A stretch of 64,000 nucleotides of DNA from Escherichia coli. Its GTDB lineage: Bacteria; Pseudomonadota; Gammaproteobacteria; Enterobacterales; Enterobacteriaceae. The notes under the pieces are model-generated. The model was not told the DNA's origin. It did not search any database and worked only from the letters and a program-made list of their open reading frames with translations. Made by a program: the position numbers and the translations under genes. The DNA lies in the NCBI RefSeq assembly GCF_003334255.1, contig NZ_QOWU01000003.1; one strand, 5' to 3'. This document shows, one piece after another, positions 40,665 to 48,023 of the stretch (positions are counted from its first letter, which is position 1; each line of letters starts with the position of its first letter).

Positions 40665-42701
40665 ATGGTACCCTCAACATTTTCTCGTTTGAAAGCCGCG
40701 CGTTGTCTGCCTGTTGTTCTGGCAGCCCTGATTTTCGCCGGTTGTGGCACCCATACTCCCGATCAGTCCACTGCTTATATGCAGGGCACGGCGCAGGCTG
40801 ATTCTGCCTTTTATCTTCAGCAGATGCAGCAAAGCTCTGATGATACCAGGATCAACTGGCAATTACTCGCCATTCGTGCACTGGTGAAAGAAGGTAAAAC
40901 CGGGCAGGCGGTTGAGTTGTTTAACCAACTACCGCAAGAACTGAACGATGCTCAGCGTCGCGAGAAAACACTGCTGGCGGTAGAGATTAAACTGGCGCAG
41001 AAAGATTTTGCTGGCGCGCAAAACTTGCTGGCGAAAATCACACCTGCCGATTTAGAACAAAACCAGCAAGCGCGTTACTGGCAGGCAAAAATCGATGCCA
41101 GCCAGGGGCGTCCTTCCATTGATTTACTGCGCGCGTTAATTGCTCAGGAACCGCTGCTTGGCGCGAAAGAAAAACAGCAGAATATTGATGCCACCTGGCA
41201 GGCGCTCTCCTCCATGACTCAGGAACAGGCGAATACGCTGGTGATCAACGCCGACGAAAATATTCTGCAAGGCTGGCTGGATCTGCAGCGCGTCTGGTTT
41301 GATAACCGTAACGATCCCGACATGATGAAAGCCGGGATCGCCGACTGGCAGAAACGTTATCCGAACAATCCGGGCGCGAAAATGCTGCCAACGCAGTTGG
41401 TTAACGTAAAAGCGTTTAAACCAGCCTCGACCAACAAAATCGCCCTGCTGTTGCCACTGAATGGCCAGGCAGCGGTATTTGGTCGCACTATTCAGCAAGG
41501 CTTTGAAGCGGCGAAAAATATCGGCACTCAGCCAGTGGCAGCTCAGGTAGCTGCCGCACCTGCCGCAGACGTAGCTGAACAACCTCAGCCGCAAACCGTG
41601 GATGGCGTTGCCAGCCCGGCACAAGCCTCGGTTAGCGATCTGACCGGTGAACAGCCTGCAGCCCAGCCGGTGCCTGTAAGCGCCCCGGCGACAAGCACCG
41701 CAGCGGTAAGCGCACCCGCAAATCCATCCGCAGAGCTGAAAATCTACGATACCTCATCACAACCACTTAGCCAGATCTTAAGCCAGGTTCAGCAGGATGG
41801 CGCGAGTATTGTGGTCGGTCCGTTGCTGAAAAATAACGTTGAAGAGTTGCTGAAGAGCAACACTCCGCTGAACGTACTGGCACTGAACCAGCCGGAGAAT
41901 ATCGAAAATCGCGTCAATATTTGTTACTTCGCGCTTTCACCGGAAGACGAAGCGCGCGATGCAGCGCGTCATATTCGTGACCAGGGTAAACAAGCGCCGC
42001 TGGTGCTGATCCCACGCAGTTCATTGGGCGATCGCGTAGCCAATGCGTTTGCGCAAGAGTGGCAGAAACTGGGCGGCGGCACCGTTCTGCAACAAAAATT
42101 TGGTTCCACCAGCGAATTACGCGCGGGTGTTAACGGCGGTTCTGGTATTGCTTTAACGGGTAGCCCGATTACTCTCAGAGCGACAACCGACTCCGGCATG
42201 ACGACCAACAATCCAACGCTGCAAACCACGCCAACCGATGACCAGTTCACCAATAATGGCGGTCGTGTCGATGCGGTGTACATTGTGGCAACGCCGGGTG
42301 AAATCGCTTTTATCAAACCGATGATCGCCATGCGTAACGGTAGCCAGAGCGGTGCAACGCTGTACGCCAGCTCCCGCAGTGCGCAAGGGACCGCTGGCCC
42401 GGATTTCCGACTGGAGATGGAAGGCTTGCAGTACAGCGAAATCCCGATGCTGGCAGGCGGTAATCTACCGTTAATGCAGCAGGCACTCAGCGCGGTGAAT
42501 AACGATTATTCACTGGCTCGCATGTATGCGATGGGCGTCGATGCCTGGTCGCTGGCAAATCATTTCTCACAAATGCGCCAGGTTCAGGGTTTTGAAATCA
42601 ACGGTAATACCGGAAGCCTGACGGCTAACCCGGATTGCGTGATTAACAGGAACTTATCATGGCTACAGTACCAACAAGGTCAGGTAGTCCCCGTCAGTTA
42701 A
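40665..42701 (+). CDS. lpoA: penicillin-binding protein 1A activator lipoprotein LpoA (YraM), 678 aa
   Basis: ATG at 40665 ([27 protein letters not shown]: lipobox LIFAGC); TPR N-domain plus periplasmic-binding-like C-domain separated by an Ala/Pro/Gln-rich linker. Confidence 0.9.
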
Positions 42702-43054
42702 CCACCAAACAGACCGGCGATGCGTGGGAAGCACAAGCGCGTCGCTGGCTGGAAGGCAAAGGACTGCGGTTTATCGCCGCTAACGTGAACGAGCGTGGCG
42801 GCGAGATCGATCTGATAATGCGTGAAGGCCGGACCACCATTTTTGTCGAGGTACGCTATCGCCGCTCTGCGCTTTATGGCGGCGCGGCAGCCAGTGTGAC
42901 CCGCAGCAAACAACACAAATTATTACAGACTGCCCGCTTGTGGCTCGCGCGTCATAATGGGAGTTTTGATACTGTGGATTGCCGGTTCGATGTGGTAGCC
43001 TTCACCGGGAATGAGGTTGAGTGGATTAAGGATGCCTTTAATGACCACTCATAA
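42659..43054 (+). CDS. yraN: UPF0102 family protein YraN, 131 aa
   Basis: Translation [43 protein letters not shown]...; start overlaps the lpoA 3' end by 43 nt. Confidence 0.88.
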
Positions 43055-43073
43055 TTAAGGTTTAAGGATTAGC

Positions 43074-43664
43074 GTGCAAGAAAGAATTAAAGCTTGCTTC
43101 ACTGAAAGCATTCAAACTCAAATTGCGGCGGCAGAGGCGCTTCCGGATGCCATCTCCCGTGCAGCCATGACGCTGGTTCAGTCTCTGCTCAATGGCAACA
43201 AAATCCTCTGTTGTGGTAATGGAACTTCCGCTGCCAATGCACAGCATTTTGCTGCCAGCATGATCAACCGTTTCGAAACGGAGCGGCCCAGCTTACCTGC
43301 CATTGCACTAAATACTGATAATGTTGTCTTAACGGCGATTGCCAACGATCGCTTACATGATGAAGTGTATGCAAAACAGGTGCGGGCGCTGGGTCATGCG
43401 GGAGATGTATTGTTAGCCATTTCCACCCGTGGCAACAGCCGCGATATTGTTAAAGCAGTTGAAGCCGCCGTTACGCGTGATATGACCATTGTGGCATTGA
43501 CCGGCTATGACGGCGGCGAACTTGCAGGTTTGTTAGGGCCACAGGATGTGGAGATCCGCATTCCTTCGCATCGTAGTGCTCGCATTCAGGAAATGCATAT
43601 GCTGACGGTAAATTGCCTGTGCGATCTGATCGATAACACGCTTTTCCCTCACCAGGATGATTAA
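43074..43664 (+). CDS. diaA: DnaA initiator-associating protein DiaA (SIS domain), 196 aa
   Basis: GTG start at 43074; [59 protein letters not shown]... (GmhA-like SIS fold). Confidence 0.9.
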
Positions 43665-43673
43665 GGAGAATAC

Positions 43674-46238: not shown

Positions 46239-46757
46239 ATGAGTAAGAAAATTGCCGTTTTAATCACTGATGAATTTGAGGATTCAGAATTTACTTCACC
46301 CGCAGACGAGTTCCGTAAAGCCGGACACGAAGTGATTACCATTGAAAAACAAGCGGGTAAAACGGTGAAAGGCAAAAAAGGAGAAGCCAGCGTGACCATC
46401 GATAAATCCATCGATGAAGTGACGCCTGCGGAGTTTGATGCCCTGCTGCTACCGGGCGGCCATTCACCGGATTATCTGCGTGGGGACAACCGTTTTGTCA
46501 CCTTTACCCGTGATTTTGTGAATAGTGGCAAACCGGTGTTTGCCATCTGTCACGGCCCGCAGTTGCTGATCAGCGCCGATGTGATTCGGGGGCGCAAACT
46601 GACCGCAGTTAAACCGATCATTATTGATGTTAAAAATGCGGGCGCGGAATTTTACGATCAGGAAGTCGTGGTTGATAAAGATCAGCTGGTTACCAGCCGG
46701 ACACCGGACGATCTGCCAGCGTTTAACCGCGAGGCGTTACGCCTGCTCGGTGCCTGA
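46239..46757 (+). CDS. yhbO: DJ-1/PfpI family protein/nucleic-acid deglycase YhbO, 172 aa
   Basis: [36 protein letters not shown]... with catalytic Cys in the AICHGP context; ATG at 46239. Confidence 0.9.
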
Positions 46758-47180
46758 GTCGCGTAGCCAAATCATTTTTTTACCAAAGCCCAGCGTGTTG
46801 TCGGTGAATTTGATTTCATCGAGCCGGATTTCCCACACCGGGGCCGACAGCATTCTGGCAACCGGAAAGCGACGATTGTACGCCTTGCGCGCGAGGTCGC
46901 TTTCCTCACCTTCCAGCCTGCGGATCTCACCTTTAAACTGCACACCGCGAATTAACGCTACCGTTTTCGGCTGACCGTTTACCGTTCCGGCAACCGCAGC
47001 CTGCGGCCCACTCATCTGCGCGTGGCGCGTTTTTTCTTCCGTCAAAATGTAGAAGGCGACTTTCTGCGCATCAAAAAGATAAAAGGCATTAGCGCACCAG
47101 AGTTCCCCTTCCTGCTGCACACACCAAGTGACAACATGTTGTTTTGCCAGCCAACGGCTGATGGCGATGAGTGTTTCCAT
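46737..47180 (-). CDS. yhbP: UPF0306 protein YhbP (pyridoxamine-phosphate-oxidase-like fold), 147 aa
   Basis: Translation [56 protein letters not shown]...; 3' end overlaps the yhbO 3' end by 21 nt (convergent). Confidence 0.85.
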
Positions 47181-47230
47181 TGCTGTTCTCTTTTATACTG
47201 TGGGCCTGACCTTAACATGCGACGCAGACG

Positions 47231-47533
47231 ATGACACCCTGGTTTCTTTACTTGATCCGTACCGCCGACAATAAGCTTTATACCGGGATCACCACGGATG
47301 TCGAACGCCGCTATCAGCAGCACCAAAGCGGCAAAGGGGCGAAAGCACTGCGCGGGAAAGGAGAACTAACGCTGGTGTTTTCCGCGCCAGTGGGCGATCG
47401 TTCGCTGGCGTTACGGGCGGAATATCGCGTTAAGCAACTGACCAAACGGCAAAAAGAGCGTCTGGTAGCGGAAGGCGCAGGGTTTGCAGAGCTGTTAAGC
47501 AGTCTGCAAACCCCGGAGATTAAAAGCGATTGA
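47231..47533 (+). CDS. yhbQ: GIY-YIG domain protein YhbQ, 100 aa
   Basis: [34 protein letters not shown]... (GIY-YIG motif YLIR...YTGIT). Confidence 0.88.
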
Positions 47534-48023
47534 AATGCTCGTGATACTCAACCAGGCCGGTAACGCCATTCAGCGCGTCATCCGCTAAACGATGTACCTG
47601 GAAGGCGCTTTCAGTGCCCGGCCAGCGGCAACGCAGATCGTGATGCGCCGCCAGTTCAAAGCCGAAACGACTGTACAGCGCCGGATCGCCCAGCGTCACC
47701 ACTGCGGCATAGCCGAACTCATTAAGCGAATCGAGTCCTTCATAGACCAGTTGGCGTGCCAGCCCCTGTCCACGGTATTTTTCATCAACCGCCAACGGTG
47801 CCATGCCGACCCATTGCAGGTCTTCGCCCTGCACATCAACCGGACTAAATGCCACATAGCCAATGACCTGACCTTCGTCATCTGTCGCCACCAGCCCCAG
47901 CGTCAGAAAGCCATCTTCACGCAGATCGTGAACCAGCTTCGCTTCCGCATCACTTTCGAATGAGCGACGCAGCAGGGCATCAATACCCGGCGCATCAATG
48001 GGAATTTCTACTCGAATTAGCAT
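47520..48023 (-). CDS. yhbS: GNAT family N-acetyltransferase YhbS, 167 aa
   Basis: Acetyl-CoA binding motif (…[10 protein letters not shown]…) in the ORF translation. Confidence 0.88.

Follow-up and report, generated by a model that had tools for sequence, protein, structure and literature searches.

Introduction

The closest described counterparts of convergent gene pairs in Escherichia coli are the convergent excludons, i.e., adjacent tail-to-tail genes on opposite strands whose transcripts overlap. In strain MG1655, ExcludonFinder detected 165 of them, an entry in this excludome being one present in at least 50% of 58 MG1655 RNA-seq sets, and in 146 of the 165 the terminators are embedded in the neighbouring gene (PMC12288877). 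An independent transcriptome study found that 276 of 370 convergent E. coli operons (75%) overlap, with a mean of 286 nt (Conway et al. 2014, PMC4161252). Overlaps of the coding sequences themselves occur in 663 of 4,131 adjacent E. coli gene pairs (16%), comprising 586 same-strand, 75 convergent and 2 divergent pairs (Huvet and Stumpf 2014, PMC4161906). Here, four such overlaps were analysed in a 64,000-nt stretch of E. coli DNA (contig NZ_QOWU01000003.1 of assembly GCF_003334255.1; hereafter the window), two of them between genes of the same strand (lpoA/yraN and ubiT/yhbS) and two between convergent genes (yhbO/yhbP and yhbQ/yhbS). The best explanation overall, which we consider probable, is that all four are genuine, old and stable overlaps of these two ordinary kinds.

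Both convergent pairs share with the described excludons the adjacent convergent genes, the overlapping 3' transcripts and the termination signals inside the neighbour (PMC12288877; PMC4161252). They differ from the average excludon, with its mean intergenic distance of 95 nt (PMC12288877), in that the coding sequences themselves overlap, by 21 and 14 nt. No material difference was found from the convergent overlaps of PMC4161906, of which yhbQ/yhbS and yhbO/yhbP are ordinary 14- and 21-nt members; as in that set and in the account of Rogozin et al. 2002 given in PMC2478687, the overlap originates at the stop codon by a shift into the neighbour and is conserved. The same-strand pairs resemble the termination-reinitiation pairs of Huber et al. 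2023 (PMC10666635) in having the Shine-Dalgarno (SD) sequence and the start codon of the downstream gene within the upstream open reading frame (ORF). The overlaps are already annotated, fall into known classes and, in the convergent pairs, have already been catalogued, and they are ordinary rather than new.

Results

Conservation of the four overlaps

Over 42000-49000, the window matches E. coli K-12 MG1655 at 100% identity, and this segment was found in 5,426 of 5,426 complete E. coli genomes searched. Window positions equal NC_000913.3 positions minus 3,252,735. Gene limits were taken from the RefSeq annotation of two MG1655 records, which agree with each other and with a mechanical ORF list, and the sequence at each junction was inspected directly. 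The overlaps of 43, 21, 14 and 7 nt reported in an earlier note on this DNA proved to be exact in the sequence, the ORF list and the annotation (Table 1).

Table 1. Genes, overlaps and junction features of the lpoA-ubiT region (window positions).
Feature	Position	Strand	Basis
lpoA	40665-42701	+	RefSeq MG1655
yraN	42659-43054	+	RefSeq MG1655
yhbO	46239-46757	+	RefSeq MG1655
yhbP	46737-47180	-	RefSeq MG1655
yhbQ	47231-47533	+	RefSeq MG1655
yhbS	47520-48023	-	RefSeq MG1655
ubiT	48017-48541	-	RefSeq MG1655
lpoA 3' end/yraN 5' end, same-strand overlap, 43 nt	42659-42701	+	ORFs and annotation
yhbO/yhbP convergent overlap, 21 nt	46737-46757	both	ORFs and annotation
yhbQ/yhbS convergent overlap, 14 nt	47520-47533	both	ORFs and annotation
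ubiT stop/yhbS start, same-strand overlap, 7 nt (ATGCTAA)	48017-48023	-	ORFs and annotation
SD-like AGGA for yraN, within lpoA, 7 nt ahead of the ATG	42648-42651	+	
Rho-dependent termination region, antisense to yhbO (genome 3,299,102)	46367	-	PMC7815308
Weak terminator-like hairpin (CGGCTGGTAACCAGCTG + ATCTTTATCA), within yhbO, 38 nt past the yhbP stop	46683-46699	-	consensus scan and fold
Hairpin H2 (yhbQ codons TKRQKERLV)	47441-47466	-	fold and alignment
Hairpin H1 (GGGTTTGCAGA...TCTGCAAACCC; ~14-16 bp)	47480-47513	-	fold, shuffles, alignment
p19-captured 22-nt sense/antisense RNA duplex with 2-nt 3' overhangs (RNase III signature)	47498-47521	both	PMC7373196

Eighty loci around yhbP orthologues, each from another Enterobacteriaceae species, were compared, with the gene limits set by tblastn followed by extension to the stop codon. 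The lpoA/yraN overlap was 43 nt long in all 66 loci with both genes, the ubiT/yhbS overlap 7 nt in 73 of 74 loci and the yhbQ/yhbS overlap 14 nt in 76 of 79, the other three, from Citrobacter, having 4 nt. Among the 56 loci with yhbO, the yhbO/yhbP overlap measured 21 nt in 38, 15 nt in 13 and 39 nt in one, with four apparent outliers of 25-238 nt. At least two of these outliers (L004 and L005, both Escherichia spp.) have a frameshifted yhbO. The frameshift follows ...TSRT and gives rise to spurious "overlaps" of 238 and 25 nt, respectively; yhbO in these two genomes is probably a pseudogene. The earlier note had allowed that revised start or stop assignments might remove the overlaps; they withstood this check, with unambiguous stops and with starts, stops and overlap lengths conserved across genera.

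In 24 of the 80 species, including E. albertii, E. whittamii and many Citrobacter, Kluyvera and Trabulsiella, yhbO was not adjacent to yhbP, and all YhbP tails listed for these loci terminate sooner (e.g., WQR*, WLRD* or WLRDL*). Five of the yhbO-less loci were inspected (L007, L013, L009, L056 and L072), and yraR directly followed yhbP on the same strand in four of them, the exception being the Kluyvera locus L056. It follows that yhbO is inverted within a yhbP-yraR-yraQ string.

The window contains 8 coding-sequence overlaps per 64 junctions (12.5%). Two of its 8-9 convergent junctions have an overlap, for which the binomial probability is ~0.3-0.6 by our own arithmetic, based on 75 overlapping pairs out of no fewer than 370 convergent ones. 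A local enrichment of overlaps was rejected, as the window counts match the genome averages. The remaining four overlaps in the window are all same-strand ones: prlF/yhaV (1 nt, 24602), agaC/agaD (11 nt, 32743-32753), deaD/yrbN (8 nt, 55118-55125) and truB/rbfA (1 nt, 60042). Among the four overlaps studied here, only the 43-nt lpoA/yraN overlap belongs to the rare long tail; same-strand overlaps are dominated by the -4, -1 and -8 classes (PMC10666635), and genuine ones reach just under 60 bp, as in holD-rimI (PMC2478687).

Stop codons of the convergent overlaps

The overlapping ends of yhbO and yhbP are antisense codon for codon: TTA, a Leu codon of yhbO (46737-46739), reads TAA in reverse complement and so provides the yhbP stop. 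In the 38 loci with a 21-nt overlap, the yhbO Leu codon opposite the yhbP stop is TTA (20) or CTA (18). In the 13 loci with a 15-nt overlap, the same Leu is encoded by CTG or TTG and the next Leu by TTA or CTA, without exception (13/13). A rare Leu codon, TTA or CTA, is thereby kept in the yhbO tail (46737-46745) in 51 of 52 species, against a background of 12% for TTA and CTA together among the Leu codons of yhbO orthologues. Judging from these sequences, the stop requirement of yhbP appears to hold the rare Leu codon in yhbO. The YhbO C-terminus (...ALRLLGA) is conserved, with the PfpI profile spanning residues 4-171 of 172, and the C-terminal tail of YhbP varies among orthologues.

At the other junction, the yhbQ stop TGA is antisense to TTC-AAT of yhbS and the yhbS stop TAA is antisense to A-TTA-AA of yhbQ. 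Across the loci, a TTC codon for the YhbS Phe goes with a TGA stop of yhbQ, and a TTT codon with a TAA stop. As a stop arises opposite either TTC-A or TTT-A, the yhbQ stop survives with either Phe codon. The YhbS C-terminus (...HFNRF) is conserved and the YhbQ tail is variable.

In both convergent pairs, one partner's tail (YhbP, YhbQ), variable and dispensable, runs on antisense to the last codons of the other, which are conserved, up to a stop encoded there. Such stops arise by reverse reading, Leu TTA/CTA giving TAA/TAG and Phe-Asn TTY-A giving TRA. Since the partner C-terminus is under purifying selection, the length of the convergent overlap is frozen, as the comparison of loci shows. The tails encoded in the overlaps are thus by-products of the stop-codon position.

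Transcript overlap and RNA pairing at the convergent junctions

The list of 165 MG1655 convergent excludons includes yhbO-yhbP as well as yhbQ-yhbS (PMC12288877): in each pair, the genes are adjacent, tail to tail on opposite strands, and the published data show overlapping transcripts. The arrangement is the known one of convergent excludons or overlapping 3' untranslated regions. As the coding sequences overlap, the full-length mRNAs of the two convergent pairs are complementary over at least 21 nt (yhbO/yhbP) or 14 nt (yhbQ/yhbS). With no intergenic DNA at these junctions, each mRNA must end within the partner gene. The overlap of the transcripts is not caused by that of the coding sequences, because 276 of the 370 convergent operons overlap anyway.

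In the p19 capture data set, which lists perfectly paired 21-22-nt duplexes with 2-nt overhangs as in vivo RNase III products, one entry is named "yhbQ yhbS", with 584 and 274 reads (PMC7373196). Each of its two strands matches the window exactly and only once, one at 47500-47521 (+) and the other at 47498-47519 (-). The minus-strand RNA starts one base past the yhbS stop and covers one arm of hairpin H1, described below. The duplex is formed by yhbQ mRNA and a 3' extension of the yhbS mRNA, and it abuts the 14-nt overlap. Among the p19 entries listed, none was for yhbO/yhbP. The published duplex is consistent with complementary yhbQ and yhbS RNAs that pair and are then cut by RNase III. The antisense pairing of 3' ends proposed in the earlier note was thus right, for yhbQ/yhbS at least, as the excludome and the p19 duplex testify, and it had already been published.

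For transcriptional interference, the other consequence named in the earlier note, no published demonstration was found, nor was any report in which the expression of either convergent partner affects the other, and any regulatory effect on these genes was judged to be modest.

Rho-dependent termination within yhbO

The published table of Rho-dependent termination regions places one antisense to yhbO, on the strand of yhbP (position 3299102, -), with a Rho score of 4.79 and p = 2.7e-9 (PMC7815308). The position given in Table 1 is the point of the highest Rho score and its resolution is coarse (800-nt windows). Without bicyclomycin (BCM), 77 reads were recorded upstream and 20 downstream of this position; the corresponding values with BCM were 115 and 143 (PMC7815308). 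Rho-dependence is indicated in the published table by the increased read-through with BCM past this site and past 3295554 (-). According to these published data, yhbP transcription is ended by Rho within antisense yhbO. Both sites, antisense to yhbO and to yraN, are listed instances of the Rho suppression of antisense read-through (Adams et al. 2021, PMC7815308), from which they do not differ.

The search for canonical intrinsic terminators at the junctions gave none, and the only match of the scan nearby was the weak one at 46699-46683 (-). This palindrome is mostly dictated by conserved LVTS codons and constitutes weak evidence for a terminator. In 7 kb, the scan returned 14 terminator-like matches, with 9.2 +/- 3.2 expected. 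The E. coli hairpin across the yhbO/yhbP overlap was no better than shuffled sequences (z = -0.6, plus strand). A run of seven T residues past the yhbO stop lies 7 nt from the nearest hairpin and reflects conserved Lys-Lys codons of yhbP. A search of Rfam detected no RNA family at any overlap.

Hairpins H1 and H2 within yhbQ

Two hairpins on the yhbS-sense strand were identified inside the yhbQ coding sequence. H1, which lies in the variable 3' portion of yhbQ, starts 7 nt past the yhbS stop and consists of perfect 11-nt arms with an inner extension. It folds at ~-23 to -25 kcal/mol on both strands, with z = -5.2 (minus strand) and -3.6 (plus strand) relative to dinucleotide shuffles. Relative to synonymous-codon resampling of yhbQ, z was -3.0 and -3.3 (p = 0.005 and 0.002). 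Among the orthologous sequences, the H1 pair 15-46 is GC in 26 and CG in 13, and a hairpin of at most -10 kcal/mol was found in 39 of the 50 sequences with the H1 segment.

H2 forms an 11-bp stem in most genera. Its mean minimum free energy is -13.4 kcal/mol for the yhbS-sense strand versus -9.0 kcal/mol for the yhbQ-sense strand, the former being the more stable in 72 of 79 sequences. Compensatory pairs are located at third codon positions: the Thr3-Leu3 pair is GC in 39, AU in 12 and CG in 7 sequences, and the Lys3-Arg3 pair is GC in 54, AU in 8 and GU in 9. In a phylogeny-preserving null consisting of all 2,414 variable third-position pairs of the same yhbQ alignment, Thr3-Leu3 ranked in the top 2% and Lys3-Arg3 in the top 0.04%; only 3 of the 2,414 null pairs showed three Watson-Crick types together with a pairing of 75% or more. 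In the covariation alignment of 79 sequences (A1), 84.9% of cells were paired versus 80.1 +/- 0.5% in shuffles (0/500) and 32-49% in slid registers, and changes on both sides were seen in 76 cells versus 35 +/- 5 in shuffles (0/500).

The data are consistent with yhbS transcripts that enter yhbQ and whose 3' end is probably defined or protected by H1/H2, the hairpins being maintained in part by covariation at synonymous sites. Whether H1/H2 form a selected 3'-end element for the convergent ubiT-yhbS transcript inside a coding sequence is doubtful, and from the sequence and its alignment we put this forward as a tentative possibility. H1 resembles the collision-type bidirectional terminators (Ju et al. 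2019, as described in bioRxiv 10.1101/2022.10.23.513370) in being a stem-loop without a U-tract at a convergent boundary. It differs from them in that H1/H2 sit in coding sequence. A stem-loop at the convergent boundary was found for yhbQ/yhbS (H1) and not for yhbO/yhbP, which also departs from the described terminators in relying on Rho on at least one strand and having no conserved stem-loop. No Rho region antisense to yhbQ is reported in the tables of PMC7815308, which is negative evidence only.

Several observations weigh against this account of the convergent junctions. Neither H1 nor H2 is followed by a U-tract on either strand, as an intrinsic terminator would be, and the terminator scan called neither of them. 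Enterobacter, Klebsiella and Kluyvera lack H1 or have a shorter form of it, and the covariation controls remove phylogenetic non-independence only in part. The curated Term-seq tables contain no 3' ends in 3,299,000-3,300,799 (PMC7815308). The yhbQ/yhbS duplex is scarce, at ~3-7 reads per million (RPM) in a data set in which 87% of genes reach 1 RPM or more (PMC7373196), so the pairing may be incidental. Conserved structure is lacking at the yhbO/yhbP junction (RNAalifold -3.0 and -4.3 kcal/mol, no double compensatory changes). The supplements of the SMRT-Cappable-seq study gave no matches for mapped 3' ends.

The statement in the earlier note that convergent overlaps leave no room for terminators holds for intergenic space only; it misleads as to termination signals and 3'-end structures, which are located inside the partner gene (H1/H2 in yhbQ, Rho in yhbO). 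The covarying hairpins within yhbQ are the sole detail that could be new.

Same-strand junctions

The starts of yraN and yhbS are the only plausible ones for these genes. No start codon in the yraN ORF precedes the ATG at 42659, and ~50 codons separate it from the next ATG in frame. In the first 24 codons after it, read directly, neither ATG, GTG nor TTG occurs. This ATG and the AGGA ahead of it were invariant in 59 of 59 distinct junction sequences, and the yraN start context aacAGGAAgttatcATG and the position of the lpoA stop were invariant or nearly so in orthologous junctions. At the other same-strand junction, the SD-like AGGTGA precedes the yhbS ATG (48023) at 48032-48027 and the motif gtaGGTGAnccATGCT(A/G)A is conserved across orthologous loci.

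YraN family profiles match only from residue 10-17 on, and the LpoA C-terminus, encoded in the other reading frame of the 43-nt overlap, is conserved. The overlap thus codes for the end of LpoA, which is conserved, and for the first 14 residues of YraN, which are not.

In both pairs, the ribosome-binding site and the ATG of the second gene lie inside the end of the first ORF, and lpoA/yraN and ubiT/yhbS would therefore each be co-transcribed, with yraN and yhbS translated from sites traversed by upstream ribosomes. Short same-strand overlaps back translational coupling (PMC10666635), and ubiT/yhbS, at -7 nt, stands beside the common -8/-4/-1 class; termination-reinitiation coupling is plausible for this pair. 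The lpoA/yraN pair, at -43 nt, is outside that class, far beyond the distances shown to work in the reinitiation systems of PMC10666635. Reinitiation coupling is unlikely for yraN because reinitiation drops steeply with distance, a spacing of 14 nt already costing 40-80% (PMC10666635). The likeliest mechanism, we infer, is independent initiation at the conserved AGGA-N7-ATG inside lpoA. Like holD-rimI (just under 60 bp, PMC2478687), lpoA/yraN is a long yet genuine conserved overlap. The same-strand overlaps are junctions internal to operons and their logic is that of translation, not of antisense RNA.

Antisense transcription was noted opposite yraN/diaA, at window ~42819 (-) and ~42937-43300, running toward the lpoA/yraN overlap. 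A p19 double-stranded RNA (dsRNA) cluster named "diaA yraN" has antisense starts at U00096.2 positions 3293799, 3293995 and 3294041 (-), corresponding to window ~43043, 43239 and 43285. The Rho termination region at 3,295,554 (-), antisense to yraN, has a Rho score of 3.26 (PMC7815308).

Neighbouring features

The 50-bp divergent gap between yhbP and yhbQ (47181-47230) gave no match in the promoter scan, and inspection by eye showed only partial -10-like hexamers. Probably, the yhbP and yhbQ promoters are located inside each other's coding sequences or the transcripts arise by read-through from yhbS and yhbO.

The neighbouring convergent pair dolP/yraQ does have structured DNA between its genes. 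Sub-threshold Rfam matches to naRNA4 were obtained on both strands at this junction (window 44218-44357), beginning in the last 32 nt of dolP and crossing the 113-bp dolP/yraQ gap. These matches are taken to be REP-type palindromes; Rfam names naRNA4 only.

Discussion

The explanation that best survives beside that of ordinary overlaps is that the convergent pairs are selected regulatory excludons, in which colliding polymerases and the cutting of the paired 3' ends by RNase III keep the two partners from being expressed together. On this model, yhbP would fall when the stress gene yhbO is induced, and yhbQ when ubiT-yhbS is expressed. The recurrence of both pairs in at least half of the 58 transcriptomes, the RNase III-type duplex at the yhbQ/yhbS junction and the conservation of the arrangement and overlap lengths across genera accord with this model. 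So do the signs of selection at synonymous sites in H1 and H2, stem-loops being needed for positioning polymerase collisions at bidirectional terminators (bioRxiv 10.1101/2022.10.23.513370). However, neither anticorrelated expression nor mutant data were found for these pairs, and the constraint on the partner's C-terminal codons fully explains the conserved overlap length. Moreover, yhbP persists without an adjacent yhbO in 24 of 80 species, the yhbQ/yhbS duplex is scarce, and p19-captured dsRNA is on average ~38-fold denser at divergent 5' than at convergent 3' operon overlaps (PMC7373196). When yhbQ or yhbP was deleted from a multicopy clone with yhbS, the activation of a sodB reporter by this clone changed little or not at all, a weak argument of indirect relevance. 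Selection for mutually exclusive expression therefore seems unlikely.

An interleaved noncontiguous operon, in which read-through supplies the yhbP and yhbQ transcripts, given that the two genes start only 50 bp apart, was found to be clearly less probable still. The yhbO transcript would run antisense through yhbP into yhbQ, and the ubiT-yhbS transcript would cross yhbQ in antisense to reach yhbP and then yraR-yraQ. The strands of yhbO (+), yhbP (-), yhbQ (+) and yhbS (-) do alternate without intergenic terminator space, no promoter-like scan match lies in the 50-bp gap, and yraR follows yhbP in most of the yhbO-less loci inspected. BCM also raised the minus-strand coverage past yhbP about 7-fold (20 to 143), although the upstream coverage rose as well (77 to 115). 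Nevertheless, under normal conditions Rho halts this minus-strand read-through, and H1 and H2 are placed exactly where read-through from yhbS would be blocked. In addition, yhbP-yhbQ is not among the 16 divergent excludons of MG1655, nor is the locus among its 3 noncontiguous operons (PMC12288877).

An annotation artefact, with wrong start codons or read-through of sequencing errors making separate genes appear to overlap, is suggested by the many long prokaryotic overlaps that are mispredictions, chiefly 5' extensions of the downstream gene (PMC2478687), a general type to which the 43-nt lpoA/yraN overlap with its late-starting YraN family core belongs, but it is scarcely credible and was excluded by the conserved starts, stops and overlap lengths: the convergent overlaps, the class that misannotation touches least (PMC2478687), rest on unambiguous stop codons alone, yraN has no alternative ATG for ~50 codons and keeps its ATG, AGGA and 43-nt overlap throughout, the yhbS ATG, AGGTGA and 7-nt overlap are conserved together in 73 of 74 loci, and the two MG1655 annotations are independent and concur.

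The discovery value of the four ordinary overlaps is small: they are present in the reference annotation, their classes are well described and the convergent pairs stand in a published genome-wide list. They illustrate that the fixed overlap lengths are a passive consequence of the constraint on the partner's last codons, that the stop requirement of one gene can keep a rare Leu codon (TTA/CTA) in its neighbour, and that absent intergenic space does not mean absent 3'-end signals, as these may lie within the partner ORF. If H1/H2 were indeed a selected 3'-end element, the synonymous sites of yhbQ, and even the variable C-terminal tail of the nuclease that it encodes, would be shaped by selection for antisense-strand RNA structure, and the element would govern how much of the yhbQ mRNA undergoes pairing and cleavage. 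In a more extreme version, read-through from yhbS into yhbP would be gated by this element, within an interleaved noncontiguous operon. The hairpins embedded in yhbQ, with their compensatory synonymous changes, are a compact case in which to test whether a coding sequence is selected for the RNA structure of its antisense strand.

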